Of a stretch of DNA of 64,000 nucleotides, positions 588-26,384 are shown in pieces. Each line of letters opens with the position of its first letter. The stretch's first letter is position 1. The notes below the pieces were generated by a model. The model saw nothing but the letters and a program-made list of their open reading frames with translations, had not been told where the DNA came from and searched no databases. A program made the position numbers and the translations under genes. The stretch is from Microbacterium sp. (GTDB taxonomy: Bacteria; Actinomycetota; Actinomycetes; Actinomycetales; Microbacteriaceae): positions 69,959 to 133,958 of the forward strand of contig NZ_JAPSHY010000008.1 in assembly GCF_031179285.1 (NCBI RefSeq). Reading direction: 5' to 3'.

Positions 588-696
588 TTGCTCATTGTGA
601 CTGATATATGCGGATGATGCCAGTGTGAAGGATGTGACTTGCCTTGCTTGAGCTCGGCGCCCGCGGCTCTCAGCTCAGGTGTGGCACGATATGGGG

Positions 697-3985
<3,289 letters not shown>

Positions 3986-6396: not shown

Positions 6397-6518
6397 GTGA
6401 GTGTTCCAAGGTGTCGGAGCCCTGAATCACGGGCTTCTTGAAAGGCTACGCGAAAACCTGCCGCACCTCGACGCGGCAGCGGTGACGCACGCGCGCTCAC
6501 TGGTGAAGATACGATTGA

Positions 6519-7658
<1,140 letters not shown>

Positions 7659-7668
7659 ACTCGGCATT

Positions 7669-8460
7669 GTGAGTCACGCTGCTGTCGGGGCGCCGGGAAC
7701 GCCCCGGCGATACCTGCATTCACTCTGGCTGCTGTCGGCCCGCGATCTGAAGGTCCGCTACGCGACGAGCTTCTTGGGGTACGTCTGGTCGGTGCTCGAC
7801 CCTCTGGTGATGAGCCTGATCTACTGGTTCGTCTTCACTCAGGTCTTCAAGCGCTCCGTCGGCGAGGATCCGTACATCGTCTTCCTCATCGTCGCGCTTC
7901 TGCCGTGGGTGTGGTTCAACACCTCGGTGTCCGACTTCACGCGGGCCTTCCGCAAGGACTCGCGACTCGTTCGCTCCACGTCGATTCCGCGATCGATCTG
8001 GGTGAACCGGATTGTGCTCAGCAAGGGCGTCGAGTTCCTCTTCTCCCTTCCGGTGCTGGTGGTCTTCGCGATCCTCAACGGCGCAACCGTCACCTGGGCC
8101 CTGTTCTGGTTCCCGGTCGCGGTCATCCTGCAGGTGATGCTCCTCGTCGGCCTCGGGCTTTTAGTCGCTCCGCTGTGCGTCCTCTACACAGACCTCGAGC
8201 GGACAACTGCTCTCATCCTCCGAGCCCTCTTCTACGCGTCGCCGGTGATCTACAGCGTCCGTGACCTCCCAGCCCCCTTTGACGTCATCGGCTCTTTCAA
8301 TCCGCTTGCCGGCATCTTCACGCTCTATCGCGTCGGCTTCTTCCCCGACCAGTGGGAGACGATGCCTGTGATCATCAGCGTCGTGATAACGGTCGTCATC
8401 TTCGTCCTCGGAGTGTGGACCTTCAAGAGCCTCGAACGACCCGTGCTGAAGGAGCTGTGA
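7669..8460 (+). CDS. wzm: ABC-2 polysaccharide exporter permease
   Basis: RDLKVRYATSFLGYVWSVLDPL, 6 TM helices, FYASPVIYS, FNPL; GTG 7669 chosen. Confidence 0.92.
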   Translation: MSHAAVGAPGTPRRYLHSLWLLSARDLKVRYATSFLGYVWSVLDPLVMSLIYWFVFTQVFKRSVGEDPYIVFLIVALLPWVWFNTSVSDFTRAFRKDSRLVRSTSIPRSIWVNRIVLSKGVEFLFSLPVLVVFAILNGATVTWALFWFPVAVILQVMLLVGLGLLVAPLCVLYTDLERTTALILRALFYASPVIYSVRDLPAPFDVIGSFNPLAGIFTLYRVGFFPDQWETMPVIISVVITVVIFVLGVWTFKSLERPVLKEL

Positions 8461-9197: not shown

Positions 9198-9223
9198 CGG
9201 GGTCTTGGCGCACCGCTCGCCCG

Positions 9224-9955
9224 TTATCGCCCGGGCTTCTTCTGTTCGATGTGTGCGTTGATGGCCGCCAGATCCGGATTCGACTCAAGAACGCCGATGA
9301 TCTCTTCGGCTGTGCGAGTCTGCGCGTGGTGTTCGATGATCAGGCGTCGGATGAGCTCGAGATCCGCCGCGGTGTCCAGCGTGACCCGGTATGCGGATGC
9401 ATCGGATTCGCGCCGAACAGCGTGCATCGTAAAGCGCCCTGAGCGATTGGCGTAGAGATACGGCGTGACATGCTCACGGTCGGATGGTTCTGTCGCGTGG
9501 TGATCTGCCTCGATGAGCGCTTGCGTCGAGAACACTTCGAAGTCGAATCCTCGCGGATACGTTCGCTGTAGCACATTGGAGACGTGAGCGTACGGATCGT
9601 CGAGCGTCAGAAAGCGCTCAATCCCCTCGCGGATGACGGCGGGGTCGATGAGCGGGCAATCGGCGGTGACGCGGACCACGACGTCGAGCCCGGCCGCCTT
9701 CGCGGCGCCGGCGAAACGCGCGAGAACATCCTGCTCGCCGCCACGGAAAGTGCTGGCTCCGTGTGCGGCAGCCTCAGCGACGATCCCGTCATCGATGTCG
9801 TTCACGGTCGTCGCGACGGTCACCGGCACGCCGATCGGTGTCAGTCGGTCGAGTTGGTGGCCGAGCATCGATTTGCCGGCGACTTCGATGAGCACCTTTC
9901 CAGGCAAGCGAGTGCTCGTCATCCGCGCCTGGGTGATGATGCCGACCCGTCTCAT
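9224..9955 (-). CDS. pseF: SpsF-type nonulosonate cytidylyltransferase (CMP-Pse synthetase role)
   Basis: IITQARMTSTRLPGKVL, RVTADCPLIDP, YPRGFDFEV, REHVTPY, RVTLDT; lies directly downstream of pseBC. Confidence 0.8.
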   Translation of the reverse strand: MRRVGIITQARMTSTRLPGKVLIEVAGKSMLGHQLDRLTPIGVPVTVATTVNDIDDGIVAEAAAHGASTFRGGEQDVLARFAGAAKAAGLDVVVRVTADCPLIDPAVIREGIERFLTLDDPYAHVSNVLQRTYPRGFDFEVFSTQALIEADHHATEPSDREHVTPYLYANRSGRFTMHAVRRESDASAYRVTLDTAADLELIRRLIIEHHAQTRTAEEIIGVLESNPDLAAINAHIEQKKPGR

Positions 9956-11076
9956 CGCAGTGCTCGGATGAGGCTGTCGACCACACGGTCCACCTGATCG
10001 TCGGTGAGGTCTGGATAGATCGGCAGGGAGAGTTCCTCAGCGTAGAATGCCTCGGCATTGGGGCACATGCCGCGCCGGTATCCCGCGTCCGCGTAGACGG
10101 GGTGCCAGTACACAGGCATGTAGTTCACCTGCACACCGATACCGTCACCGCGCATTCGTTCGAACACCTCGCGTCGGCGACCGTCGAGGATCCTCACCGG
10201 GTAAAGGTGACGTACGAGCTCGACATTCGCCCGCTGCACCGGCAGTCTCACCCCATCGACATCTTGTAGCGCGATGTCGTACCGGCGGGTGATCTCCTGG
10301 CGCCGCCTCCGGAAATGGTCAAGGCGGCGAAGCTGAGCGATTCCGAGTGCAGAGGCGATATCGGTCAGGCGGTAGTTCACGCCGAACTCGTGAACCTCTT
10401 GGTGCCATGCTCCTTCGGTCGATATGCGAAATCGGTCCGGATCGCGGACGAGTCCGATGAAGTGGAACTCGTGCGCGCGCTGAGCGAGGAGCGGGTCCTT
10501 CGCCACCACCGCCCCGCCTTCGCCGGTCGTCATGTTCTTGGTTGGGAAGAACGAGAATGTCGTGATATCGGCGAGATCTCCGACGGGTCGCCCGTTGTAT
10601 GTGCTGCCGATCGAGTGGGCGGCGTCGTCGAGAACGAGGGCGCCGACCTTGGCGGTCACTGCGGCGAGACGATCGTAATCGGCTGGGTGTCCGGCATAGT
10701 CCACTGCAGCGACGACCTTCGTCTTGTCGTCGACGAGTGCATCGACGGCCGCGGGATCGATGAGCGCGGTGTCTTCCTCGACGTCGGCGAAGATGACCGA
10801 AGCACCGAGCATCGACGCCATGGATGCCGTCGCGATGAAAGTCATCGGCGTGGAGATGACCGTGTCGCCCGACGCTATCCCAGCAGCGGCGTACGCCATG
10901 TGGAGCGCGGCACTGCCGGAAGTCGCGCTCACGGCTCTGTGCCCTCCCGCGAGTTCTCCGATACGGCTCTCGAAGGCTGCGACGGTCGGTCCGGTGGTCA
11001 GCCAGTCGCCGCGGAGGATCGCGGTGACAGCTTCGATGTCATCGTCTGTTATCGATTGTCGTCCGTAGGGCAACAT
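9952..11076 (-). CDS. pseC: UDP-4-amino-4,6-dideoxy-N-acetyl-beta-L-altrosamine transaminase (DegT family)
   Basis: MLPYGRQSI, DWLTTGP, DDAAHSIG, SFFPTKNMTTGEGG, NYRLTDI. Confidence 0.9.
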   Translation of the reverse strand: MLPYGRQSITDDDIEAVTAILRGDWLTTGPTVAAFESRIGELAGGHRAVSATSGSAALHMAYAAAGIASGDTVISTPMTFIATASMASMLGASVIFADVEEDTALIDPAAVDALVDDKTKVVAAVDYAGHPADYDRLAAVTAKVGALVLDDAAHSIGSTYNGRPVGDLADITTFSFFPTKNMTTGEGGAVVAKDPLLAQRAHEFHFIGLVRDPDRFRISTEGAWHQEVHEFGVNYRLTDIASALGIAQLRRLDHFRRRRQEITRRYDIALQDVDGVRLPVQRANVELVRHLYPVRILDGRRREVFERMRGDGIGVQVNYMPVYWHPVYADAGYRRGMCPNAEAFYAEELSLPIYPDLTDDQVDRVVDSLIRALR

Positions 11077-11078
11077 TC

Positions 11079-12068
11079 TCAGATGCCTCGCCGGATGATC
11101 TCCGCGATTTGCTCTCGCGTGTACCACTGATCATTGCTGTCGGAGCGATACGCGAATCCGTCCGCTACGACCTCAGCTCCCTCTGGAGCCGAGTATCCCC
11201 ACGAAGCCAGATCCGGCTGGATGATGAAGTATTTGCCGTCGCTGACGACGACCGTCCGCCGCCCCTCTTCCGGGCTGATCATCTCCTCGTGCAACTTCTC
11301 GCCGGGCCGCAGTCCCACATCGATGAGCTCGGCATCCGGTGCGACGGCGTGGGCCAGGTCGGTGACTCTCATGGACGGGATCCGCGGAACAAGGAGTTCC
11401 CCTCCCTGCATCAACTCGAAGGTTTCAACGACCATCTCGACTGCCTGCGGCAAGGTGATGAAAAACCGGGTGCAGCGGAGGTCGGTGATCGGCAAGGGTT
11501 CCCCCGAGGCGCCGAGTTTCGCGAAGAACGGGATGACCGAACCCCGAGACCCCATCACGTTCCCGTAGCGGACGACCGCGAAGCGCGTTTCGTATGCCGC
11601 CGCGTAGTGGTTCCCGGTGATGAAGAGCTTGTCAGCGGTGAGTTTCGTTGCGCCGTAGAGGTTGATCGGACTCGAGGCCTTGTCGGTCGAGAGCGCGACA
11701 ACTTTCTTCACGCCGGCGTCGATTGACGCTTCGATGACGTTCTGACTGCCGAGGACGTTCGTCTTGACGAACTCGAAGGGATTGTATTCCGCGGTGTCCA
11801 CCTGCTTGAGGGCCGCGGCGTGAACGACGTAATCCACGCCGTGCAGTGCACGCACCAGACGCCGCTCGTCGCGGATGTCGCCGATGAACCAGCGGAGCCG
11901 AGGATCGTCGTTGAACTGCTGACGAACCTCATACTGTTTGAGCTCGTCCCGAGAGAAGATGACCAGGCGTCGCGGACGCAGGTTCTCCAGCGCATGACGG
12001 ATGAACGCCTTGCCGAACGAGCCGGTGCCACCGGTGATGAGGATGCTCGAGCCCTCGAGAATCGACAA
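11079..12068 (-). CDS. pseB: UDP-N-acetylglucosamine 4,6-dehydratase (inverting)
   Basis: ILITGGTGSFGK, FSRDELKQ, HAAALKQV, STDKASSPINLYGATK, RYGNVMGSRGSV, GLRPGEKLHE; TTG start with AGGAGA RBS. Confidence 0.95.
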   Translation of the reverse strand: MSILEGSSILITGGTGSFGKAFIRHALENLRPRRLVIFSRDELKQYEVRQQFNDDPRLRWFIGDIRDERRLVRALHGVDYVVHAAALKQVDTAEYNPFEFVKTNVLGSQNVIEASIDAGVKKVVALSTDKASSPINLYGATKLTADKLFITGNHYAAAYETRFAVVRYGNVMGSRGSVIPFFAKLGASGEPLPITDLRCTRFFITLPQAVEMVVETFELMQGGELLVPRIPSMRVTDLAHAVAPDAELIDVGLRPGEKLHEEMISPEEGRRTVVVSDGKYFIIQPDLASWGYSAPEGAEVVADGFAYRSDSNDQWYTREQIAEIIRRGI

Positions 12069-12210
12069 GCTGTCTCCTTGGCAATAGATGCGGACGCGGG
12101 CGAATCCTCGAGTGCCCTCCTGCCGAACTATCCTATCGGTGGGCGATCGCCCCACATGTCGATCCCTATACGCGGAGGACAGCGGCTTGCGCGAAGACGA
12201 AGGGACTGCG

Positions 12211-13710
12211 ATGGCTCGTCGAGTGCTTCTGCACTGCAACGCAGGCGGCCCCCATGGGATGGGGCATCTGATGAGATGTCTCGCCCTGGCCGACATCGCG
12301 CAGGAGCGGGGATGGCACGCCGCGCTGGTCGGAGACATCGACGAGGTCGGCTCCGCCGTGGCCGATCGGTTGTCCCCGCAGCTTGAGATCGTTCAATCAG
12401 CGTCGCTGCGGCGAAGCCGCTCCGCGACCAGCGTGTTCGCTGACGTCGAAGTGGTGCATCTGGACAGCTACTCGGACCTGCCCTTCACGATCCCCCGTGG
12501 GCTCCTGGTGAGCAACATGCAGGACGGACCGTTCGGCGTTCGCCCCGCAGATCTCGCCGTCGACGGCAACCTCGGCGCTGAGTTCCGGTTCGATCAGGCT
12601 GAGCTGAGCGCGCATCAACTCGTAGGCGCGGATGCCGCAGTGGTGCGCAATCAGGTGCTTCGACAGCGTGCGATCGACCCTGTCGAATCGGACCGGGTAC
12701 GAGTGCTGATCGTGATGGGGGGCACGGATCCGCTCGGTCTGACCTCTCGAGTTTTGCTCGCACTCGACAGCATCACAGTGCCGCTGGCCGTGACAGTGGT
12801 CGACCCGAATCAATCGAGCGACGTCCGATTGATCGCCGCCCGGTCTGCTCACCGAATCAGTGTCAGCGGCTTCGTTGATGACCTTCCCGCGCTCGCGCGC
12901 GAACACGATCTCGCTGTCAGCGCCGCCGGCACCTCGGTATGGGATTTCGCATGTATGGGAGTTCCGATGGCACTGCTCTGCGCGGTGGACAACCAACTCG
13001 CTGGCTACCGCACTGCAGTCGACGCGGGACTGGCTATCGGGTTGGGCACACCGCCGCATCGCGATCTGGAAAGGCGAGTCGCGGCGCTCGCTCCCCTTCT
13101 CGGCGATCGCCATGCGCTCCGTCGCCAACGTGACCGACTCATGCGCGTCATCGACGGACTAGGAGGCTGGCGAATCGTCGCAGCGTGGGAGGCGCTCATC
13201 TCGCGACGCGTGAAAGCGATCGACGCGCGTGCAGAGGAGCTCACCGTTCGCCGCGCGCGGCTCGACGATGCTTCACTCCTGTTCGAATGGCGCAATGACT
13301 CGGTGACGCGTCTGAATTCGCGTTCTACGGAAGTCCTGGATTGGGAGAGCCATCAAGCGTGGCTGGCCGCGTGCGTCGCAGACTCGGCTCGGCTGCTCCT
13401 GATCGCGGAGCATCGAGGCACGCCGATGGCGACGGTGAGGTGGGACCAGAAGGCCGGTGTCGACTGGGAGGTCTCGATCACCATGGCGCCGGAGTACCGC
13501 GGACGGGGACTCAGCGGAGCCGTACTGACGGCAGCCGAGCGGTCACTGCCTGCGTCAGCACCGGTCAGGATGCTTGCCGTCGTCCATGAAGCGAATGCGG
13601 CGTCGCTAGCCCTTTTCGCCCGCGCGGGCTACCTTCCGCATCTACCGTCGAATGCGGACGGATACGAGTCATGGGCGAGGTGGCAGCTGCCTTCCCCAGC
13701 TGCCGACTAA
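12211..13710 (+). CDS. pseG: Fused PseG (UDP-sugar hydrolase) and PseH (GNAT N-acetyltransferase)
   Basis: N-terminal GMGHLMRCLALA, MGGTDP, DLAVSAAGTS..., DNQ; C-terminal LFEWRND...H..W, PEYRGRGLS, NAASLALF. Confidence 0.87.
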   Translation: MARRVLLHCNAGGPHGMGHLMRCLALADIAQERGWHAALVGDIDEVGSAVADRLSPQLEIVQSASLRRSRSATSVFADVEVVHLDSYSDLPFTIPRGLLVSNMQDGPFGVRPADLAVDGNLGAEFRFDQAELSAHQLVGADAAVVRNQVLRQRAIDPVESDRVRVLIVMGGTDPLGLTSRVLLALDSITVPLAVTVVDPNQSSDVRLIAARSAHRISVSGFVDDLPALAREHDLAVSAAGTSVWDFACMGVPMALLCAVDNQLAGYRTAVDAGLAIGLGTPPHRDLERRVAALAPLLGDRHALRRQRDRLMRVIDGLGGWRIVAAWEALISRRVKAIDARAEELTVRRARLDDASLLFEWRNDSVTRLNSRSTEVLDWESHQAWLAACVADSARLLLIAEHRGTPMATVRWDQKAGVDWEVSITMAPEYRGRGLSGAVLTAAERSLPASAPVRMLAVVHEANAASLALFARAGYLPHLPSNADGYESWARWQLPSPAAD

Positions 13711-14768
13711 ATCAGGTCCCACGACAGCGGTGTGCCACGCTTGACGTCTCGGACGAATCGCCTCCCGACGATCTCATTGAAACAGTCGGGGGGCAGTCCG
13801 CCAGCGGGGCGGATCGAGCGCACATTCTCCGGAGCGACCGGTTCCCCCGCCCTCACGTCGGCGACCACGAACAGCGAGCGCCGCAGTGCGACGACAGCTC
13901 TTTCATCCGGTGTTGGCCCGAACGAGACGCCGCTCGATGCGGCGACGCGAGCTTGCTCGGACGCGGTGACGAGGGCAGAGAACTCTGAGGGGGTGAGGGA
14001 GAACTCCGAATCCACGCCGCCGTCCGCGCGGTCCAGTGTGACATGTTTTTCTACGACCACCGCACCGAAACCGGCGGCTGCAACGGCCACGCCGATTCCC
14101 GTCGTGTGATCCGACAGCCCCACCGGCACATCGAACGCCTCTCGCAGTGCTCGGATGTTCCCCAGGCGGGCCTCTTCCGGCACAGCGGGGTACGCGGCTG
14201 TGCATGCCAGGAGCACCAGTTGAGAGCACCCTGCGTCGCGCATCGCTGTGACCGCCGAGTCGATCTCGGACAGCGTGGCCATCCCTGTCGAGACGATCAC
14301 GGGCTTCCCTGTACGGGCGACCTCTCGAAGCAGCGGCAAGTCGACGATCTCGGCCGAAGCCGTCTTGTACAACTCCACGCCGAGGTCCTCGAGAAACGCG
14401 ACGGAACTGGGGTCGAACGGCGTTGAGAAGGGGAGAAGGCCGTGCTTACGCGTGCGTGCGAAGATCTCCGCGTGCCACTCCCATGGGGTGTGGGCTTCCC
14501 GGTACAGGGAGTAGAGATTTCGACCGCCCCAAAGATCATGGTCGCCTCTCACGCGGAACGCGGGCAGGTCCGAATCGATGGTCAGGGTGTCGGCGGTATA
14601 CGTCTGAATCTTCAGCGCCTTCGCACCCGTGGTCGCAACGGCGTCCACGATGCTCAGCGCCCGCGACAACTCTCCGTTGTGGTTGCCGGACATCTCGGCA
14701 ATGGTGAATATCGGCTGTCCGCGACCGATTGAAGAGTTCGAGAGCGCAATGGTCTGGGAGGCATCCAC
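13707..14768 (-). CDS. pseI: Pseudaminic acid synthase
   Basis: IAEMSGNHNG, KIQTYTADTLT, STPFD, KTASAE, STGMA, GLSDHT, EKHVTL, C-terminal SAF domain RRSLF...RSIRPAGGL; GTG 14768 follows TAGAGT by 7 nt. Confidence 0.93.
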   Translation of the reverse strand: MDASQTIALSNSSIGRGQPIFTIAEMSGNHNGELSRALSIVDAVATTGAKALKIQTYTADTLTIDSDLPAFRVRGDHDLWGGRNLYSLYREAHTPWEWHAEIFARTRKHGLLPFSTPFDPSSVAFLEDLGVELYKTASAEIVDLPLLREVARTGKPVIVSTGMATLSEIDSAVTAMRDAGCSQLVLLACTAAYPAVPEEARLGNIRALREAFDVPVGLSDHTTGIGVAVAAAGFGAVVVEKHVTLDRADGGVDSEFSLTPSEFSALVTASEQARVAASSGVSFGPTPDERAVVALRRSLFVVADVRAGEPVAPENVRSIRPAGGLPPDCFNEIVGRRFVRDVKRGTPLSWDLI

Positions 14769-14861
14769 GCTTCTCACTCTAGAGGCGAGAGGAGTCCGGC
14801 GTTCACACCCCTTGACGCCAACGTCGTGGGACCGTGCTGTTGTTGCCCTAAGCTTGGTGCC

Positions 14862-15557
14862 ATGGGGCGCGTAACGGAGCTCGCCGTCGACGATGTATCG
14901 ACAGCGGACGCGAATTTTTATGACCGGTTGAAACCATTGGCTGCGAGTTACGCGCGTACCCAAGTGGTGCGTCGTGTCGCGGTGGTGGGAAACCAGCCGT
15001 TGCAGTCGTCCGAGCACAGGGCAGCGCAGATCGACGGGGCGGACCTGGTCTTTCGCGTCAACGGATTCCGAGTGGATGAGCCCGACGCGCCGCCGGTGGT
15101 CGGCCGCCATACCGATATCGTCGTGTTCAACCGAGGGGTGAGACCGACGCCCTGGTTCTTCCACGACTATGCTGAGCGGCTTTACCTGATGATCGAGCCG
15201 GGTCGACTGCTCTGGGAGAACCCGAAGATCCCGGCGTTCTGGCCGGCGGACCTCGGTATCGTCACCGTCCCGAACCGAGAGGTGATATTGCCGCTGGGAC
15301 GTGCACTCGGCGCGGATCCCCGAGATGGCGGGCACTGGGCCACGACGGGTACTGTGATGCTCTGGATAGCGGCCCACCTTTTTCCCGAAGCCACGGTGGA
15401 TGCATACGGCTTGTCGTTCGTGGATGAACCGAGTCAGAAATCCTGGGACCATGCCTACGGCGACTCTTCACCGGTCGGCGAGGAGCACCTCATCGAGTTG
15501 GAGTCGCGACTCGTGCGGGGCTGGATTGATGCCGGCCGGGTCTACTACCACCGTTGA
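14862..15557 (+). CDS. GT29/GT42-like sialyltransferase-fold protein; candidate pseudaminyltransferase
   Basis: Motif L RVAVVGN...IDGADLVFRVN...VGRHTDIVVFN; motif S ATTGTVMLWIAAHLFPEATVDAYGLSF; motif III-like DHAYGD; motif VS HLIELE (H-x4-E); TAAGCT -10 lies 7 nt before the ATG. Confidence 0.75.
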   Translation: MGRVTELAVDDVSTADANFYDRLKPLAASYARTQVVRRVAVVGNQPLQSSEHRAAQIDGADLVFRVNGFRVDEPDAPPVVGRHTDIVVFNRGVRPTPWFFHDYAERLYLMIEPGRLLWENPKIPAFWPADLGIVTVPNREVILPLGRALGADPRDGGHWATTGTVMLWIAAHLFPEATVDAYGLSFVDEPSQKSWDHAYGDSSPVGEEHLIELESRLVRGWIDAGRVYYHR

Positions 15558-15587
15558 GAAACTGAACCATCGACCGATGAGGATTGC

Positions 15588-15956
15588 ATGCTGAAACGAC
15601 TGCGCCGTCGTATGGACGAAGCCGTGGAGCGCCGCGTGGACGCGCGAGTCGCCGTGAAACTCGAGCAGGTGCTCGCTGAGCTGGAGAAATCGCAACGCGA
15701 TTACGAAGCGCGCCTCGGTGGAACGCAGGCGGACTTCTCCTTCATCCGCTCAGAGTTCGATCGCATCGCCCCACAGCTTGCGGCTCTTGAGCAGAGATTT
15801 GAGGCGCTGCGTGCTCAGATCGACCTCACGGATGTGGACCCCGCGCACGCACTGGTCCTGGCCAGGGCGGAACACGAACGCGCCCGCCTGAGATTGGAGA
15901 TCGCCTCTCACTATGAGGAGCGTCTGCGGCGACTGGAAGACGAGCCGCGCGTCTGA
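15588..15956 (+). CDS. Small coiled-coil hypothetical protein
   Basis: 122 aa, rich in L/E/R/A with heptad-like periodicity; 30 bp downstream of the GT29-like gene on the same strand. Confidence 0.75.
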   Translation: MLKRLRRRMDEAVERRVDARVAVKLEQVLAELEKSQRDYEARLGGTQADFSFIRSEFDRIAPQLAALEQRFEALRAQIDLTDVDPAHALVLARAEHERARLRLEIASHYEERLRRLEDEPRV

Positions 15957-16006
15957 GCGTCACGTCGCAGCACTGAGCCCACGAGGCGAGGCGGAAGCGA
16001 GGTTGA

Positions 16007-16597
16007 TCAGAGACCGACCAGGTTTCGCAGCGCGTTCGCCCTGGTCCGTGAGTCGCCGACGGACAGAGAGTCGCCAGCGCTCGCCGCTTCTCGAAGGTCT
16101 TCGAGGCTCGCGGCATAGGCCGCGACTCCGTCCTGCCACTCCGTCTCGATGGCGGACGGCGGTTGAGTGCCTCCCAGGCGCTGAGCGTCGCCCTGGAGGG
16201 TGTCGATGATCGTCAGGGCCTCCGAGTCGTCGCTGTCCGCCACGAAGTCCAAGCCGGCCAAGGCGTCGTCGAGCCAGGGCTGCACCTGGCCGCGGAAGAA
16301 CGCCAGATCCGGATCGGCAGGTGGTGGGGGAGTGTCAACGGGGTTCGGCTCCGGTGCGGTAGTCGTTCCAGGTGTCGGTGTCGGTGTCGGCGTCGGGATC
16401 TGGGTGGCCGACGACGATGCCGTGGGCGTCGGCGTTCCCACCGGCTGCCCATCGTCGCGCGGGATCAGGAAGAAGAGCAGGAGCGCGACGATGATCACGG
16501 CCGCGACCGAGAGCCCCACGATCAGCCACACCCGCCCGCGGTTCCGCGGTTTCGGCGGGATCGGCGCCCACCGAACGTCCGGCTGCTGTTCGCTCAT
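16007..16597 (-). CDS. Single-pass membrane protein with a Pro/Thr linker and a helical extracellular domain
   Basis: MSEQQPDVRWAPIPP, hydrophobic VWLIVGLSVAAVIIVALLLFFLI, PTPTPTP repeats; GGAGG RBS. Confidence 0.8.
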   Translation of the reverse strand: MSEQQPDVRWAPIPPKPRNRGRVWLIVGLSVAAVIIVALLLFFLIPRDDGQPVGTPTPTASSSATQIPTPTPTPTPGTTTAPEPNPVDTPPPPADPDLAFFRGQVQPWLDDALAGLDFVADSDDSEALTIIDTLQGDAQRLGGTQPPSAIETEWQDGVAAYAASLEDLREAASAGDSLSVGDSRTRANALRNLVGL

Positions 16598-16599
16598 CG

Positions 16600-17556
16600 T
16601 CATGCCTCCAGGGGTGCCATCGGCTGCCAGGTGCGGTCGCGCCCCAGCTTGCCGCCCTCGCGGAGTCCGCGGAAGAGGTTGCTGGTTCCGCGCACCGTCC
16701 TCTCGACGAACACGAGCCGGATGAGTTCCTTCGCGAACGTCATCGCCGTTCCGAGGCCGAACAGCACGGGGTTGTAGACGCCGTGCGCGCGGTAATACTG
16801 CTTGATGTACGCGCGATTGCGCATGATGTAGAAGCGGTAGGCGTTGCTTGACGCATTCATGTGGCGGATGCCCATGTCCCACTGCTTGATCTCACGGGTG
16901 CGCCGCAGGACGAACTCGTCGACGATGACCGCGGTGGTCTTGCGCGACGCCAGCCAGCCATACGTCTGATCGTCCCAGTAGATGAAGAATCGGGGATCAG
17001 GAAGGCCGATCTGCTGCACGATCGAACGGTGGATGAACATGCCCTCGAAGCATCCGCTGTTCATCTCCTTGTAGCCGGACTCGTCAAAGCTCGAGGGCGC
17101 GAACGGAATCGGGATGCCCATGCGCTCGGCGATGCGGTACTGCCAGTAGAACTCGCTGCCGTCGTAGTCGTAGCGGCGGCCCTGAATGCTCTTGAATCGG
17201 GGCGCCCACTTGCCCATCTTGGCTAGTCCGTCCGCAACGACCTCGACGTCGTCGTCCATCATCCAGATCCACTCGGACCCGAGCTCGTACGCGGTTCGCA
17301 TGCCCTCGCTGAATCCGCCGGATCCGCCGGTGTTCGTCTTCAGCCGGCGATAGACGATCTCGGTGCCGATCCGTTCGCGGAAGGACTCCACGACGTCGGT
17401 CGTGTCATCCGACGAGGCGTTGTCGATGATCACCACATGACCCGGCTTCGGGGCCATCGCGGTGATGCTCTCGAGGAGTCCGGTGAGAAGGTGCGATCGG
17501 TTGTAGGTGACGATCACGATCGTCGCGGATGCCGGGTCGAAGGGGACGTGTGTCAC
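16600..17556 (-). CDS. GT2 glycosyltransferase, GlfT1-like (galactofuranosyltransferase)
   Basis: VIVTYNRS, IIDNASSD, NTGGSGGF, WIWMMDDD, FEGMFI, GLPDPRFFIYWDD, YIMRN. Confidence 0.85.
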   Translation of the reverse strand: MTHVPFDPASATIVIVTYNRSHLLTGLLESITAMAPKPGHVVIIDNASSDDTTDVVESFRERIGTEIVYRRLKTNTGGSGGFSEGMRTAYELGSEWIWMMDDDVEVVADGLAKMGKWAPRFKSIQGRRYDYDGSEFYWQYRIAERMGIPIPFAPSSFDESGYKEMNSGCFEGMFIHRSIVQQIGLPDPRFFIYWDDQTYGWLASRKTTAVIVDEFVLRRTREIKQWDMGIRHMNASSNAYRFYIMRNRAYIKQYYRAHGVYNPVLFGLGTAMTFAKELIRLVFVERTVRGTSNLFRGLREGGKLGRDRTWQPMAPLEA

Positions 17557-17689
17557 GAGGTGGGATCTCCGGAAGGCTGTGGGCTCGCGGGGCGCCGCGA
17601 GCAGGCACAAGCCTACCTGGCGGAGTTCCGGATCCCCCGAGGGCCAGCCGCGAAAGGGGAGACGTACGCCGCGCGATAGCATGACCGCC

Positions 17690-18679
17690 ATGAAGATTCT
17701 GATCACGGGCGGTGCCGGGTACATCGGATCGACGATCGCGACGGCATGTCTCGACGTCGGAATCGAGCCGATCCTGCTGGACGATCTCTCCACGGGCCTG
17801 CGTGCCTTCGGGAACGGACGATCGTTGTACGTGGGCGACATCGCCGACCAGCAGATCCTCGACCGCCTCTTCGCGGACCACCCCGACATCGACGCCGTCA
17901 TCCACTGCGCTGCGCGCATCGTCGTGCCCGAGTCCGTGGCCGACCCGCTCGGGTACTACGACGCGAACGTCGCCAAGACGATCACGTTCCTCCGGCGCAT
18001 GCGCGAGGCAGGAGTCGGGCGCGTCGTCTTCAGCTCTTCCGCCGCCGTCTACCAGGGCGAGTCGGGCGACGGCGTCGACGAGAGCGGTGCTCTCGCCCCC
18101 TCGAGCCCCTACGCGACCACGAAGGCGATGGTCGAGCAGATCCTCGCCGATGCCGCGGCCGCGGGCGACTTCCGCGCCATCGCGCTGCGTTACTTCAATC
18201 CCATCGGCGCCGACCCGCAGATGCGCACCGGTCTGCAGAATCCGATGCCCTCTCATGTACTCGGCAAGATCATGCAGGCGAGGGCGGCCGGCACTGCGTT
18301 CACGATCACGGGGAGCGACTGGCCGACCCGGGACGGCTCCGGCATCCGCGACTACGTCCACGTCTGGGATCTCGCCCTCGCGCACGTCGCGGCCGTCACG
18401 CGCTTCGACGAGGTCGCGACCACCGACGCGCCGTACCAGGTGATCAACCTCGGAACGGGCGATGGCGTCACCGTCCGCGAGCTCGTGGGCGCCTTCGAGC
18501 ACGTGACCGGCGAGCCGCTCGATGTCGTCGAGACCGAACGCCGTCCCGGTGACCAGGCCGGCGCCTACGCCATCGTCAAGCGTGCCGCCGATGTGCTCGG
18601 GTGGCGGGCGGAACGCTCGCTCGACGACGGGGTACGCGACGCGCTGGCGTGGGCGGAGAAGCTTCGCACCTTGCGCTGA
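17690..18679 (+). CDS. galE: UDP-glucose 4-epimerase
   Basis: MKILITGGAGYIGS, ESVADPLGYY, FSSSAAVY, YATTK, LRYFNPIGA, GIRDYVHVWDLA. Confidence 0.93.
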   Translation: MKILITGGAGYIGSTIATACLDVGIEPILLDDLSTGLRAFGNGRSLYVGDIADQQILDRLFADHPDIDAVIHCAARIVVPESVADPLGYYDANVAKTITFLRRMREAGVGRVVFSSSAAVYQGESGDGVDESGALAPSSPYATTKAMVEQILADAAAAGDFRAIALRYFNPIGADPQMRTGLQNPMPSHVLGKIMQARAAGTAFTITGSDWPTRDGSGIRDYVHVWDLALAHVAAVTRFDEVATTDAPYQVINLGTGDGVTVRELVGAFEHVTGEPLDVVETERRPGDQAGAYAIVKRAADVLGWRAERSLDDGVRDALAWAEKLRTLR

Positions 18680-18698: not shown

Positions 18699-20000
18699 CT
18701 ACAGCTGCGGTCGGAGTGTCGGGATGACGCCGGTGTTGGCCGCGTCGATGCTCTCCCGCCACGAGCGGGACTGCCCCGCGCGAAGCGCGCACAGGACGAG
18801 CATGAACCAGCCGGCGCCCGCGAGCGTGAAGCTCTCGAACATCGACTCGACGGCGAGGGTCACCAGCACCAGCGGCGTCCAGGCGTAGACAACGGAGCGG
18901 CGCACGCTCGCGACCAGCCACGATCGGATGAGTGCGACGCCGCCCAGCAGGAGGAACAGCACGAGACCCGCGGCCCCCAGCTGCAGCAGGGTGTCGAAGT
19001 ACGCGTTCAGCGCCGACTGGTGGCGGTCGTCGAGGCGGAAGTTGATGTAGGTGAAGGGATACTCGCCCCGGGCCCACGGTCCGAACCATCCCCAGCCCTG
19101 CACCGGGTTGATGGCCGTGAAATCGAGGATGGTGTTCCACAGCGTCGCTCGGACCGAGAAGTCGGACCCGGCATCGAGCAACGCGATGATCTGATGGCGG
19201 AACGCGAAGGCGACCGCGAGTGACAGGGTCACGAGCGCACCGAGCGTCCACTGCACGAGGTTCCGGCGGTCTGCGGAGGTGTGACGAACGATCATGAGGG
19301 CGCCCGTCGCGATTCCCACGGCGAATGCCAGCACCAGCACCGTGGGGGAGGCCGACAGCAGCGCCAGCATTCCCGCGAGGGCGATCGAGGGCACCGAGAT
19401 CGGCGCACTCACCGACTGCGTCCGCCACTCGATGACGAACGTGATGAGGGCGATCACCGCCACGAAACCGAGCATGTTGCGGGTGCCGAAGATGCCCTGC
19501 ACCGGCCCGCCCATCGCTAGCTGCCCCTGGATGCCGAGGAATGTGAACGGCAGGTCGAGGATGATCCCCGACATGATCTCGAGTCCAAGCGAGATGCCCA
19601 GCAGAGCGCGCAGACTGTCGCCGATCGCGCGCACGGTCTGGAGGGTGTCGCGGATATGTCCGATGGTGATCGCGAGGAACGCGTACCCGAACAGCGCCAT
19701 CCAGCCGAACAGCGTGTCCGAGTGATCCGTCGTCCAGAAGATGCTCGTGAGCGCCCATGCCATGAACGCCAGGAGCGACGACGGTGCGATCCGCAGGAGC
19801 GAGAGCTCCTCCCGCCGGACGAACAGGACCGCGGCTCCGAGTACGCAGAGCACGGCGATGATCGTCGCCAGGGTGGTCATCGACGTCGCGCGTTCGATGG
19901 CGAACGAGCCGAAGATCGCGGTCAGGACCGTGAGTGTGAACGCCCGCGCCACCTCCACGGAACCCAGCAGGCGCCCGAGGCGCGACCGCGTCGTCGTCAC
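18699..20000 (-). CDS. O-antigen ligase/polymerase (Wzy_C)-like membrane protein, lacking the conserved His
   Basis: About 12 TM helices; GIFGTRNMLG, RATLW, PVQGWGW, SALNAYFDTLLQLG. Confidence 0.75.
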   Translation of the reverse strand: MTTTRSRLGRLLGSVEVARAFTLTVLTAIFGSFAIERATSMTTLATIIAVLCVLGAAVLFVRREELSLLRIAPSSLLAFMAWALTSIFWTTDHSDTLFGWMALFGYAFLAITIGHIRDTLQTVRAIGDSLRALLGISLGLEIMSGIILDLPFTFLGIQGQLAMGGPVQGIFGTRNMLGFVAVIALITFVIEWRTQSVSAPISVPSIALAGMLALLSASPTVLVLAFAVGIATGALMIVRHTSADRRNLVQWTLGALVTLSLAVAFAFRHQIIALLDAGSDFSVRATLWNTILDFTAINPVQGWGWFGPWARGEYPFTYINFRLDDRHQSALNAYFDTLLQLGAAGLVLFLLLGGVALIRSWLVASVRRSVVYAWTPLVLVTLAVESMFESFTLAGAGWFMLVLCALRAGQSRSWRESIDAANTGVIPTLRPQL

Positions 20001-21418
20001 GGCACCCGCCGGCGTCGCTCGCCGTGATCGATGAGGCGCTCACGCTCGCTCATGCCGACGCCCACCAGGGGCACCGACTTGATCTTGAACGAGAACAGCA
20101 CGATCAGCATCCAGCCCCAGAGCATGACGGGCGCCGATTCGGTGAATCCCTGCACGAGAAGCAGCGTGCCGACCAGGATCGGGAGGATCGTGACCGGCGA
20201 ATACGGTCGCTTCTCGTCGAGATCCCACCGCGGGCGATCGACGGCGAAGAACCAGGCACGCCAGAGGAACGTCAGCAGCACGACGCCGATGAGGATCACG
20301 CCGATGACGCCGAGCTGCAGGTACACGTCGACCCACATGTTGTGCGCTTGCAGCACGCTCATGCCGTGGTCGATGATCCAGCCGTCGAACGCCGGATCCC
20401 AGGGCAACCAGGGACTCGCATGCCCCCAGCCGATCACCGGACGCGCGTTCGCGCGTTCCAGGACGTCGCCCCAGATGCGTTCGCGACCGGTCAGATCGGC
20501 CGAGCGTCCGAGCGCCTGCAGGAGCGGTCCGCGCAGCAGCCATCCGGCGACGATGCCGACGAGTCCGACGCTCGCGAAGGCGATATAGGTGTTACGCCGG
20601 GCGGCGCCGGTCGGAGCTCGGCGGATGAGCAGCACGGTCGCGGCCACCAGCGCGACCGCGAGCGCACACACCACGGCCGTCGCAGAGCCGGCGCGGAAGA
20701 ACAGGAACGCGGTGACCACCATCCAACCGATCAGCCACGCCTGACGACGAGAACTCGCCCAAATCTGCACGGCGAACACGATGAGGGCGAGCAGGCAGAG
20801 GGCCGCGAGCAGATTGGCATTGCCGACGATCCCCTGCAGACGTCCTCCGTCGAAGAGGTTGTCGCGCGACCAGTACCACTGCTGATCGAATCTGCCGTCG
20901 GGCGGAGTCACGAAGTTCGGCAGAACGGGTCCGTGCACCACCAGTGACACCCACAGCTCGAACGCGAGCGAGAGGCCCAGCACCCATTTCAGGGCGGACG
21001 CGAGTGAGCGAAGCAACTCGCGCCAGGTCAGCCAGACCGCGAGGAACACCGCCTGCACCGTGATCGCAAGGAGCAAAACGCTGGTGACGAGCGTCGTCGC
21101 GCGCCACTCGGACCAGGCGACCGACAGCACCGCCAGGGCGGTATAGCCGAGCGCCGTCCAGGGGAGTCGGCGCCACGGAAACGGCGTCTCGCGCCGGAGG
21201 CGGATCATCCGGGGGACGCCGATGGCGATGGTGCCCGCGAGGATGATCGCGCCGACTGCGCCTGCGCCGACGGGGCCCAGTGCGTGCTGCAGCGCGGCGG
21301 GTGCGAGGGCGACGATGAGCGCGAGCACCGCGTACCCGCGCAGCATCAGGTGCCCCGTCGATTCCCGCTCGGGCGGGGCTGGCGGGGCTGCCACCGGATG
21401 ATTCGTGTACTGCGCCAT
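19997..21418 (-). CDS. O-antigen ligase family protein
   Basis: GIVGNANLL, LTGRERIW, PVIGWGH, AHNMWVDVYLQLG. Confidence 0.85.
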   Translation of the reverse strand: MAQYTNHPVAAPPAPPERESTGHLMLRGYAVLALIVALAPAALQHALGPVGAGAVGAIILAGTIAIGVPRMIRLRRETPFPWRRLPWTALGYTALAVLSVAWSEWRATTLVTSVLLLAITVQAVFLAVWLTWRELLRSLASALKWVLGLSLAFELWVSLVVHGPVLPNFVTPPDGRFDQQWYWSRDNLFDGGRLQGIVGNANLLAALCLLALIVFAVQIWASSRRQAWLIGWMVVTAFLFFRAGSATAVVCALAVALVAATVLLIRRAPTGAARRNTYIAFASVGLVGIVAGWLLRGPLLQALGRSADLTGRERIWGDVLERANARPVIGWGHASPWLPWDPAFDGWIIDHGMSVLQAHNMWVDVYLQLGVIGVILIGVVLLTFLWRAWFFAVDRPRWDLDEKRPYSPVTILPILVGTLLLVQGFTESAPVMLWGWMLIVLFSFKIKSVPLVGVGMSERERLIDHGERRRRVP

Positions 21419-21472
21419 CGCGTTCAGGCTACCGCCCCGTGCCGCGCCCTCGGTGGCTCTACGCTGGATGCC

Positions 21473-22603
21473 ATGCTGCTGAACCTCACCAATGCGCCTC
21501 GCGACTACGCCTGGGGATCGACGTCCCTTCTCGCAGAACTCGAGGGACGTGAGCCGACGGGGGCGCCGGAGGCGGAGGTCTGGTTCGGCGATCACCCGGG
21601 AGACCCGGCCGACGTGGCGGGCGGCGGCACTCTGGATGCCGTCACCGGTGGTGAGCTGCCGTATCTGCTCAAGCTCCTCGCCGCGGCGGACCCGCTGTCG
21701 ATCCAGGTGCACCCCACGATCGAGCAGGCGAAGAGCGGCTGGGAGCGCGAGGCGGGCCTCGCCCTAGACGACCCGCACCGCAACTACCGTGACGACAACC
21801 ACAAACCGGAACTCATCGTCGCGCTGAGCGACCGCTTCGAGGCTCTCAGCGGCCTGCGCCCGGTCGCCCACACCCGGCGGATGCTGGACGTCCTCGATGA
21901 TCGCGGCGGTGTCGTCGAACTGCGCGCTCGCCTGGACGAGGCGGGCGACGCGCTGCGCGAGACCATCGGCTGGCTGCTCTCCGGCAGGGCGCAGGCGGCG
22001 GTCGACGATGTCATCGCCGCGGTGGCGGCCGCGGCAGCCCGATCGGGCGAGACGGAGTTCGGGGCGACCCTGCAGACGGTGTCGCGCATCGCGGAGCGCA
22101 ACCCGGGCGACCCGGGGGTCGTCGTCGCGCTGCTGATGAACCATGTCGTGCTTCGCCGCGGCGAGGGCATCTTCCTGCGCGCGGGTCTACTTCACGCCTA
22201 CCTCGAGGGGCTCGGAGTCGAGATCATGGCGGCGAGCGACAACGTGCTACGCGGTGGCCTGACCCCGAAGCACATCGATGTCGCAGAGCTGCTGTCGGTC
22301 CTCGACACGACGCCGGGGGAGGTGCCGGTGCTCCGCCCCGAAGCCGAGGGCGCGGTCACGGCCTATCCCGTTCCGATCCCGGACTTCGCGCTGCGTCGCG
22401 TGTCGCTCGGGGGGACCCCCGTCGATGTCGACGTCGAAGGCCCGACGATGGTTCTCAGCACGCAGGGGGACGTCGCCGTCGCGGGAGCGGATGGCCACGA
22501 ACACCACGTCGCCGTGGGGGCGGTCGTGTTCGCGACGGCGGACGAGCGGATGCTGCGACTCACCGGTTCCGGCGAGGCTTTCATCGCCACGCCGGGGCGT
22601 TGA
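21473..22603 (+). CDS. manA: Mannose-6-phosphate isomerase, class I
   Basis: RDYAWGS, EVWFGDHP, YLLKLLAA..PLSIQVHP, YRDDNHKPE, HAYLEG, EIMAASDNVLRGGLTPKH. Confidence 0.96.
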   Translation: MLLNLTNAPRDYAWGSTSLLAELEGREPTGAPEAEVWFGDHPGDPADVAGGGTLDAVTGGELPYLLKLLAAADPLSIQVHPTIEQAKSGWEREAGLALDDPHRNYRDDNHKPELIVALSDRFEALSGLRPVAHTRRMLDVLDDRGGVVELRARLDEAGDALRETIGWLLSGRAQAAVDDVIAAVAAAAARSGETEFGATLQTVSRIAERNPGDPGVVVALLMNHVVLRRGEGIFLRAGLLHAYLEGLGVEIMAASDNVLRGGLTPKHIDVAELLSVLDTTPGEVPVLRPEAEGAVTAYPVPIPDFALRRVSLGGTPVDVDVEGPTMVLSTQGDVAVAGADGHEHHVAVGAVVFATADERMLRLTGSGEAFIATPGR

Positions 22604-26200: not shown

Positions 26201-26384
26201 GGCAGACACCGAAGCGGTCGAGTCCGGCGAAGCGCCGGGATCCGACGACGCGCTGGAGTCCGCCGAAGCGGTCGAGTCCGACGAGGTGCCGGAATCCGAG
26301 GTGGCGCCGGCACCCGAGGACGATCGCGACACCGGCGAGGTGCGTGCCGCCGCTGCGACGCAACCCACCGAGGAGGATCGATGA
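23238..26384 (+). CDS. Large GT2-like domain plus multi-pass membrane protein with an acidic C-terminal tail
   Basis: N-terminal GT-A-like region (WLLTHD, VAPKL, DLGVRAR), many TM helices, D/E-rich tail; typical position downstream of whiB2. Confidence 0.8.
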   Translation: MPARVHAIIVARPGATARAQLLRTLDALRTQSTPPAAITLVMCGSAASARESETVANTVEGIIEARSSTSFAEAVELARPRVAEGSAIWLLTHDTAPHPRALERLTGTLERSPSAAMVAPKLVDADDDRMIASLGVSMTTLGRSVELAAGELDQGQHDAADDALGADVRGLLIRSEVRDALRPDSALAGADEGLDLGVRARLGGGRVVLAPSARVSVHPDGPAALPRSRSRRAYVTRLAQLHRRLAYAPAIALPLHWLTLLPLALWRSITDLIGKRPESVFSEWGAALTAMVRFGAVARSRRHIKAFRTSSWASIAPLRVSRSQLRRRLDDGHGSEGGAASELRFFSGGGAWTVLAALAVSVGAFTALLAWPVLGGGGLLPLRETVTALWQDAAWGVRGLGVDVIGPADPFAGVLAVLGSLWPAGPSFALVLLWVLALPLAVLGGWFAATRVSDRAGLRIFAGIAWALAPTFLTALVDGRPAAVMVHLLLPWLFHTAVVAHRSWGAAGAASLLFGAVLACAPSLAPALVLLWVVALGFVLSTARIRGAARLLWIPVPAVALFAPLVAWQVQHGSAWALLGDPGLIWAGPQATADAAGRLALATGFPTSDLAGWMSLAERAPIAVWAPLLCAPLALLALASAVSPRWRAGITLLVVSLAGLATAFMAVGVQVSFSQGIPVAIWPGAGLSLAWIGVVGAALVTLDTAVTLPRLRLLATAASGLALAVCALPALTAFHADRSLLTDGPRSTLPAYVAALAAGDREIGTLVLTPQNDGGLAAEVAWGTSETLGAQTTMLSTATEIRGADITSLAVDLLSARDFDAPGELAAHGISHVLLAEVPGGESDRARSFRTAAVTSLDQRAGFLPAGTTDRGMLWRLEAETSPRAAMSPGETATARLFITLQLVAVFAALLLSIPTRASRRASRALSRVVGRAPDEPLVLPRQAEEFDEPIVGGTAHDAGAAEDDIVTGQGIDDARDEPEDVEHPIAPADTEAVESGEAPGSDDALESAEAVESDEVPESEVAPAPEDDRDTGEVRAAAATQPTEEDR

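Follow-up and report, generated by a model that had tools for sequence, protein, structure and literature searches.

The stretch of DNA analysed here (the window) covers 64,000 nucleotides of Microbacterium sp. (NCBI RefSeq assembly GCF_031179285.1, contig NZ_JAPSHY010000008.1, positions 69,959 to 133,958 of the forward strand). Within it an open reading frame (ORF) encodes a protein of 231 amino acids (aa) that resembles glycosyltransferase family 29 (GT29) and lies beside genes for the synthesis of cytidine monophosphate-activated pseudaminic acid (CMP-Pse). A preliminary description, drawn from the letters of the window, had put this protein forward as a pseudaminic acid (Pse) transferase. 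The genomic context now supports that proposal, through the predicted fold, the co-occurrence with synthase genes, the absence of a recognised rival enzyme and the co-inheritance of the genes in one cassette. The window has a G+C content of 67.8%, and its proteins are most closely related to those of Microbacterium.

The GT29-like gene, its neighbours and the accessory cassette

The translated ORF carries sialylmotifs L, S, III and VS in the order first described, and all of the strings quoted at that time are present: RVAVVGN, followed by ID-x2-D-x-VFR-x-N and VG-x2-TD-IVVFN, in motif L; TTG-x2-M-x3-A and VDAYGL in motif S; HAY in motif III; and HLIELE, which holds the H-x4-E of motif VS. The spacer between GN and ID needs correction, being 12 residues long and not 13. 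Across an alignment of 56 homologues reaching down to 47% identity, the invariant residues include N44, D61, R65 and N67 (motif L), T162, G163 and S185 (motif S), H197 (motif III) and H209 and E214 (motif VS). The Pfam model PF00777 (Glyco_transf_29) matches the protein in two stretches with 32.1 bits (E 1e-7), the gathering cut-off being 23 bits, and most homologues have a precomputed match to the same model. Because the model exceeds its cut-off and the motif residues are invariant in the homologues, the GT29 motif match goes beyond chance. A matching NCBIfam model was not found, and the Pfam search of the protein gave no match to PF01973 (Maf/MptE) or PF06002 (GT42, CstII-like). The homologues share the MGR start and a length of 231-232 aa, and the start codon at 14862 is therefore considered right.

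Two features of GT29 enzymes are missing, both of which had been reported as absent before. The protein contains no cysteine and hence lacks the disulfide between motifs L and S, and it has no hydrophobic N-terminal segment that would provide the anchor and stem of a type II membrane protein; in the model described below, residues 14-28 are instead part of a helix of amphipathic character. The disulfide is a mark of the eukaryotic GT29 branch and not of the fold, the cysteines being missing from proteobacterial GT29 proteins as well (PMC5811610). An antisense ORF (13707-15452, 581 aa) was considered as a rival gene and rejected; it consists of pseI and a high-GC read-through, with the match to the PseI model beginning at residue 248.

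Searches of Protein Data Bank (PDB) sequences gave weak matches to GT29, marginal with the single sequence (E 0.03) and reaching E 1e-3 with a profile, so evidence on the fold was needed. From the alignment of 56 sequences AlphaFold2 gave a confident and compact model (pLDDT 90.7, pTM 0.89). When the model was compared with the PDB using Foldseek, ranks 1-30 were taken by eukaryotic GT29 structures only, namely ST6GalNAc2, ST3Gal1, ST8Sia3 and ST6Gal1 (E 6e-9 to 1.6e-3, probability 1.00, TMq ~0.44-0.58), and no GT42 structure was among the matches with E<=1e-3. The comparison with GT29 and GT42 folds suggested in the preliminary description thus ended with GT29 in every best match. Below rank 30 the scores were noise, except for the MptE-like kinase 8sd5 (MptE/Maf-type; probability 0.92), which is a member of the Maf-type fold family. 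Maf transferases of Pse and legionaminic acid share the broad sialyltransferase-like fold, and a link between this fold and the donor is therefore to be expected and is not surprising. The earlier phrase that the fold is not normally linked to Pse was for this reason overstated, 8sd5 being the sole high-probability match outside GT29. The profile search aligned motif L to ST8Sia3 and ST6Gal1, and placed the string gaeHrieaE, which holds H209 and E214, opposite GAYHPLLYE of ST6Gal1, the site of the catalytic histidine there. From this alignment H209 is the putative catalytic histidine of the GT29-like protein.

Divergent from the GT29-like gene lies pseI, which starts with GTG at 14768 and leaves the 93-bp gap given in the preliminary description. 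We presume that the gap holds a bidirectional promoter region; a scan of 14600-16200 for promoters and terminators returned nothing, and no match to the sigma-70 consensus. The neighbouring Pse pathway had been called complete. All of its activities are indeed encoded, but the evidence for them is uneven: PseB and PseI pass the cut-offs of their models, while PseC falls just under its own (408.5 bits with TIGR03588, cut-off 423.5), the PseG part stays below (90 bits with TIGR03590, cut-off 153) and PseF is assigned by CTP_transf_3 only, with no NCBIfam match at equivalog level. Matches to PseH and GNAT are found in the C-terminal third of the PseG fusion, and pseB starts with TTG and has an AAGGAG site. 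The pseGH product is a divergent fusion of ~500 aa, and its gene converges on pseI with stop codons that overlap by 4 bp. Altogether the Pse genes form four short transcription units with alternating directions.

Three genomes of the same genus (L093, L094 and L095; Glf 92-95% identical) contain neither PseI nor the GT29-like gene, and in these the membrane-protein gene and the gene of the GlfT1-like GT2 come straight after the ABC (ATP-binding cassette) ATPase gene. From the three cassette-less gene orders it follows that the 6.8 kb from pseF to the coiled-coil gene are an accessory insertion, sited where the ABC ATPase gene and the membrane-protein gene converge in a conserved galactofuranose/rhamnose (Galf/Rha) wall-glycan locus. 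The G+C content of third codon positions (GC3) is ~0.70-0.78 inside the cassette and 0.85-0.90 outside, and the lower values fit an accessory insertion. Besides the six Pse activities the cassette contains exactly two further genes, for the GT29-like and the coiled-coil protein. Since a module by which a surface glycan acquires Pse must supply a transferase, the GT29-like protein is the only transferase candidate in it. This presence/absence comparison adds stronger support for a Pse transferase than the tests named in the preliminary description.

The second of these genes encodes a conserved partner protein (Table 1). A homologue or a helical ORF is located directly 3' of the GT29-like gene in ~79 of 80 loci, with lengths of 113-211 aa, a composition rich in Ala, Glu, Arg and Leu, and a start between -28 and +64 nt from the stop codon of the GT29-like gene. 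Three blocks are conserved within the partner family, and R8, R16, R59, P62, R102, R112, L113 and E117 are invariant across orders. No Pfam family was found for the partner, its homologues are all annotated as hypothetical, and neither a signal peptide nor a transmembrane (TM) segment was detected in it. In the AlphaFold2 model (pLDDT 90, pTM 0.43) residues 2-80 form a helix of 79 residues, which after a short break is followed by a helix of 34 residues (85-118). The model suggests an elongated protein in need of a partner or of oligomerisation, and such a protein could conceivably serve as a tether, scaffold or ruler.

Linkage with nonulosonate synthase genes

A homologue scan with one genome per species returned 185 relatives of the GT29-like protein, and the locus counts given here refer to the best 80 of these with 10-kb flanks. 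All 80 are Actinomycetota, from Microbacteriaceae, Pseudonocardiaceae, Geodermatophilaceae and Nocardioidaceae among other groups; the genera include Microbacterium, Naasia, Schumannella, Actinophytocola, Amycolatopsis, Saccharomonospora, Prauserella, Blastococcus and Modestobacter. In 78 of the 80 loci, tblastn searches with the window proteins located a synthase of the NeuB family no more than 10 kb from the GT29-like gene, and a CMP-NulO synthetase accompanies it. In 70 loci the synthase is PseI-type and 55-82% identical to PseI of the window, and nearly all of these also contain PseB, PseC, a cytidylyltransferase and PseG/H. The co-occurrence with nonulosonate (NulO) synthase genes that had been proposed as a check is thus evident across Actinomycetota. 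Of the remaining two loci, one lies on a 1.7-kb contig and the other in a metagenome-assembled genome of Jiangellales; both genomes have a NeuB gene elsewhere, in the Jiangellales genome probably ~20 kb off on the same contig. Within a background sample of 201 evenly sampled Microbacteriaceae genomes the GT29-like gene was found in 4, and PseI above the cut-off in 6. With both genes this rare, linkage in 78 of 80 loci is far beyond chance.

A maximum-likelihood tree, whose tally of 71 PseI-labelled rows counts the window itself, places the three members associated with NeuB-like synthases as separate long-branched tips beside PseI-associated sisters of the same genus or family. Their scattered placement implies that the linked pathway was switched secondarily on three occasions or more. 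In the NeuB-linked members A198S occurs in two of three and D201T/A in two of three, right after the histidine of motif III (window 15453-15464), and on the basis of these three sequences residues 198 and 201 may be donor-specificity positions.

Two loci of the set contain further genes. Locus L082 of the soil actinomycete Modestobacter sp. VKM Ac-2986 (9398-14133) comprises GtrA, the GT29-like protein, the coiled-coil protein, a CMP-synthetase, a NeuC-type 2-epimerase and NeuB, and the set adjoins an EmbC-like arabinosyltransferase. In the Pseudonocardiaceae the GT29/Pse locus L081 (Actinophytocola) includes a kinase-like gene of the APH family and a gene for a polyprenyl synthase (12226-12939 and 17531-18502). 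This may hint that Pse is phosphorylated or modified in another way there, or that the locus has a lipid carrier of its own.

Outside the close homologues, a profile search of 1.8 billion representative sequences (clusters at 50% identity) yielded 469 at E<1e-3 and 33 at E<1e-30; with so few of the latter the clade is small. The distant relatives are either single-domain or multi-domain proteins, fused to GT4, GT2/GT92, GT8, DUF4422 or TPR modules. Three of four distant loci that were inspected adjoin NeuB and CMP-synthetase genes together with either ABC-2 or capsule export genes, and the fourth, on a 2.7-kb contig, adjoins a Capsule_synth gene.

Proposed function, alternatives and known systems

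The genome of the window is 98.9% complete and contains the GT29-like gene as a single copy. A whole-genome search detected no Maf (PF01973), no flagellin and no Capsule_synth (KpsS/C) homologue. What the preliminary description had said of the window, that no Maf protein or flagellin is seen there, therefore holds for the entire assembly, and its statement that no other nonulosonate transferase is visible extends to the genome for the families searched (Maf and Capsule_synth), among which none is recognisable. That the GT29-like protein is a CMP-nonulosonate glycosyltransferase of some kind seems highly likely to us. From the genomic context we further consider it a good, though less secure, candidate for a Pse transferase that acts on an exported wall glycan.

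In such a scheme PseB, PseC, PseH, PseG, PseI and PseF would make CMP-Pse in the cytoplasm, and the GT29-like enzyme, predicted to be soluble and cytoplasmic with a minimal GT29 fold, would use it as donor for a glycan acceptor. H209 of motif VS would serve as the base and, like other members of GT29, the enzyme would invert the configuration at C2. The likeliest acceptor would be an undecaprenyl-linked wall glycan of Galf/Rha type, assembled on the inner face of the membrane by the resident Glf, GlfT1-like GT2, 1048-aa GT2 protein and RmlA/CD. The coiled-coil protein probably tethers or positions the enzyme at the membrane or at the assembly complex, and the Pse-bearing product would then leave through the resident ABC-2 transporter. 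Donor identity, acceptor, stereochemistry and the role of the partner are all predicted here. Decoration of an existing glycan is favoured because the resident machinery is common to cassette-plus and cassette-minus strains.

Several observations weigh against this assignment. To our knowledge no bacterial GT29 protein has a demonstrated activity. The TM-scores against GT29 structures are moderate (~0.55), which is attributable to the GT29-like protein being ~50-70 residues shorter. Searches of the genome for GT52 and GT42 were empty, but the controls were likewise without a match, and absence of these two families does not follow from them. The genome also has a second NeuB-family gene on another contig (G000:C54:139431-140219), which matches positions 2-268 only of the PseI model with 200 bits. 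Donor ambiguity is seen at five loci, where the synthase scores about equally as NeuB and PseI and still stands beside PseB and PseC, and at three loci the synthase is NeuB-like, so the family is not exclusive to Pse. The set at L082 is of the sialic acid (Neu5Ac) type and not of the Pse type, which makes the family NulO-linked rather than strictly Pse-linked. Conversely, five of the six PseI-positive genomes in the Microbacteriaceae sample lack the GT29-like family, and other routes of Pse transfer must therefore exist. Finally, the linkage to an ABC transporter is absent at Geodermatophilaceae and Nocardioidaceae loci, and different lineages may therefore use different acceptors.

The same donor could also serve a polymerase. 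Together with its partner the GT29-like protein would then build a Pse repeat or a poly-Pse chain, similar to a teichulosonic acid, on a short primer made by the GlfT1-like enzyme, and that chain, in place of a decorated galactan, would be exported by the ABC transporter. GT29 does contain processive enzymes (the ST8Sia family), and ST8Sia3 is among the structural matches; teichulosonic acids with Pse are reported from the walls of actinomycetes, for which our search of the searchable literature returned no confirmation. At Actinophytocola and Amycolatopsis loci one GT2 and the GT29-like protein are the only glycosyltransferases beside the ABC transporter and Pse genes, and the genome of the window is without the 636-aa GlfT2-like polymerase seen at the locus in cassette-less relatives. 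We nevertheless regard a polymerase as unlikely, since the GlfT2-like gene is retained at four Microbacterium loci that bear the cassette, so that the cassette and a galactan polymerase can coexist, and since the resident 1048-aa GT2 protein, present in both kinds of genome, could itself be the polymerase; the sequence does not tell a processive enzyme from one that makes a single addition. More doubtful still is an extended version, by which the GT29-like and coiled-coil proteins would be a self-contained two-protein polymerase and ruler module. It would extend a lipid-linked primer into a Pse-based wall polymer of teichulosonic acid type, whose length is fixed and which the ABC transporter exports, and the cassette would replace the galactofuran chain in strains without GlfT2. 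If this were true, a bacterial GT29 enzyme would for the first time have a defined activity, and the coiled-coil protein would determine chain length as a protein of its own.

A protein as target, with Pse O-linked in the cytoplasm to the coiled-coil partner or to another exported protein in the manner of Maf, appears improbable. The well-studied Pse transferases of the Maf fold class that we know of all modify a helical protein, flagellin, and 8sd5 was the one high-probability match outside GT29; the partner in Microbacterium moreover has a conserved block with Ser and Thr, GTQADFSxxRSEFDR. However, Ser and Thr of the partner are not conserved outside Microbacteriaceae, only Arg, Pro, Leu and Glu being invariant in it, the partner has no signal peptide or TM segment, and the genome has no flagellin. 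The cassette itself is located in a wall-glycan locus, and relatives adjoin ABC-2 exporters and GT2 genes. A different CMP-sugar as donor, either the product of the second NeuB-like synthase on contig 54 or Kdo or Kdn, with Pse transferred by another unrecognised enzyme, we judge to be marginally less probable again. This alternative would account for the second NeuB-family gene and for family members in other genera that pair with NeuB-like synthases. Yet the short NeuB-like type occurs in ~62 of the 201 Microbacteriaceae genomes against four with the GT29-like gene, the latter is gained or lost with the Pse genes, and the NeuB-like-associated members, as isolated tips beside PseI-associated sisters, look like secondary switches of donor. 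The least probable alternative is an inactive relic of GT29 or a protein other than a transferase, such as a CMP-Pse-binding regulator or a hydrolase. The protein is shorter than the eukaryotic catalytic domains and, as said, activity is not established for bacterial GT29, but the nucleotide-binding and catalytic motif residues are all invariant down to 47% identity and the model is confident and compact.

Compared with known systems, the candidate Pse transferase belongs with the eukaryotic GT29 enzymes (ST6GalNAc2, 6apl/6apj; ST3Gal1, 2wnb/2wnf; ST8Sia3, 5bo6-9; ST6Gal1, 4mps/6qvt) in Pfam family, motif order, GT-A-variant fold and the His and Glu of motif VS. It differs from them in being ~16-22% identical and 231 aa long against a catalytic domain of ~270-300 aa, in having no disulfide, anchor or stem, in its predicted location, which is cytoplasmic and not Golgi-luminal, in its predicted donor, CMP-Pse and not CMP-Neu5Ac, and in being encoded with an obligate coiled-coil partner. 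Maf and GT42 enzymes of the CstII type use CMP-nonulosonate donors and have a related sialyltransferase-like Rossmann core. They resemble the candidate in this donor class and core, and the MptE-like structure is a weaker Foldseek match; the GT29-like protein, in contrast, has no match to PF01973 or PF06002, and is encoded in a wall-glycan locus, not among flagellar genes, in a host without flagellin. KpsS1 (GT107-type) of Acinetobacter baumannii is a dedicated transferase of Pse to a capsule glycan, with a KpsS/KpsC-like fold and a retaining mechanism. It likewise adds Pse to the glycan of an exported polysaccharide system, but its fold is unrelated and a Capsule_synth homologue was not found in the genome of the window. 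We know of few Pse transferases (Maf, FlmG and KpsS1/GT107), all of which belong to other families and none to GT29. The partner in turn recalls WbdD and WbbB, the latter with a beta-Kdo GT99 domain, which are coiled-coil-bearing chain terminators of ABC-dependent O-antigen systems. The similarity is in the combination of an enzyme for a terminal modification, with a ulosonic acid or otherwise, and an extended coiled coil in an ABC-dependent pathway, the partner having its predicted 79-residue helix. In those systems, however, enzyme and coiled coil are one polypeptide and Wzt has a carbohydrate-binding domain, whereas here the coiled coil is a separate protein of 122 aa and the ATPase a short one; similarity in sequence was not found.

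Bacterial GT29 proteins with sialylmotifs and without a TM domain or conserved Cys have been described before (Petit et al. 2018, Sci Rep 8:2946, PMC5811610), and several Microbacterium homologues are labelled 'glycosyltransferase family 29 protein' by NCBI, so the GT29 assignment itself is not new. The published set covers alpha-, gamma- and epsilon-Proteobacteria only, with no function assigned, and its authors proposed that eukaryotic sialyltransferases derive from a bacterial GT29 branch. The present clade differs in being actinobacterial, and the link to Pse and the coiled-coil partner are not in that paper. Neither this actinobacterial clade nor the Pse linkage, the cassette or the partner was found in the searchable literature, outside of which subscription journals lie. 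The protein does not reveal a new principle but is a tractable candidate for an enzyme activity that is rare. As a small, soluble, Cys-free protein with a confident predicted fold the candidate should express easily, and if the assignment is true it would provide a tool for the synthesis of Pse-glycosides and a first functional anchor for bacterial GT29. The gene is potentially a genetic marker of Pse-bearing wall glycopolymers in Microbacterium, Amycolatopsis, Saccharomonospora, Actinophytocola and Blastococcus, with the natural cassette-plus and cassette-minus Microbacterium strains as a ready comparison. Culturable cassette-plus strains include M. oxydans NBRC 15586 and Microbacterium sp. 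Leaf159 (loci L016 and L006). The coiled-coil partner is a new and unannotated component that is invariably linked.

The resident wall-glycan locus

The features of the locus are collected in Table 1. The ABC-2 permease and ATPase are presumed to export a lipid-linked wall glycan and are common to cassette-plus and cassette-minus relatives.

Table 1. Features of the window at and around the cassette, with coordinates counted from its first nucleotide
Feature	Position	Strand	Evidence or remark
RmlA-like	652-1566	+	
RmlC-RmlD fusion	2525-3985	+	
AT3-SGNH acyltransferase	4285-6426	-	
Glf	6519-7658	+	
ABC-2 permease	7552-8460	+	Pfam ABC2_membrane
Short ABC ATPase, ~245 aa	8460-9197	+	Pfam ABC_tran; without C-terminal carbohydrate-binding extension
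Accessory cassette (pseF, pseC, pseB, pseGH, pseI, GT29-like, coiled-coil), 6.8 kb	9198-16006	.	Comparison with cassette-minus genomes, GC3
CMP-nonulosonate synthetase, PseF role	9224-9955	-	Pfam CTP_transf_3, 85.7 bits
pseC, aminotransferase	9952-11076	-	TIGR03588 best family; Pfam DegT_DnrJ_EryC1
pseB, inverting UDP-GlcNAc 4,6-dehydratase	11079-12068	-	TIGR03589, 468 bits (cut-off 408)
pseG-pseH fusion, UDP-sugar hydrolase and GNAT N-acetyltransferase	12211-13710 (start approximate)	+	TIGR03590, PseH/GNAT matches
pseI, pseudaminic acid synthase	13707-14768	-	TIGR03586, 420.5 bits (cut-off 340); Pfam NeuB and SAF
Divergent intergenic region pseI/GT29-like, presumed bidirectional promoter region, 93 bp	14769-14861	.	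Start codons
GT29-like glycosyltransferase, candidate CMP-Pse transferase	14862-15557	+	PF00777, motifs, AlphaFold2/Foldseek
Sialylmotifs of the GT29-like protein	residues: L ~37-90; S 161-184; III H197-A-Y; VS H209-x4-E214		
Conserved coiled-coil partner, 122 aa; gap of 30 bp after the GT29-like gene	15588-15956	+	GAGGA ribosome-binding site
Single-pass membrane protein, 198 aa	16007-16603	-	Pro/Thr/Ser-rich linker
GlfT1-like GT2 galactofuranosyltransferase	16600-17556	-	Pfam Glycos_transf_2; NCBIfam GlfT1, 74.7 bits, below cut-off
Epimerase	~17690-18679	+	
Two Wzy_C-like membrane proteins	18699-21712	-	
PMI	21284-22603	+	
1048-aa GT2 protein	23238-26384	+	

The GlfT1-like GT2 is 83-93% identical across relatives, with or without the cassette, and together with Glf it probably builds the acceptor glycan. 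The 1048-aa GT2 protein, too, occurs in cassette-plus and cassette-minus genomes. In the cassette-less L093, L094 and L095 the GlfT2-like galactofuranosyltransferase (L093:11486-13393) has the GlfT1-like GT2 on one side and the epimerase on the other. It is missing between 17556 and 17690 of the window and was undetected anywhere in the genome of the window, and the strain may be without a long galactofuran chain. A strict anticorrelation between the cassette and this polymerase is ruled out by the four cassette-bearing loci that keep it (L008, L010, L016 and L022).

The single-pass membrane protein next to the cassette occurs in both cassette-plus and cassette-minus genomes. Its linker is long and extracytoplasmic, a further domain forms the C-terminus, the protein matches no Pfam family, and the start of its gene overlaps the stop codon of the GlfT1-like GT2 gene. 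An ORF on the opposite strand (16163-16777, +) was dropped in its favour. Further along, the two adjacent Wzy_C proteins, similar to O-antigen ligases or polymerases, together with the ABC-2 exporter make an unusual mix of Wzy and ABC components, which is conserved in relatives.

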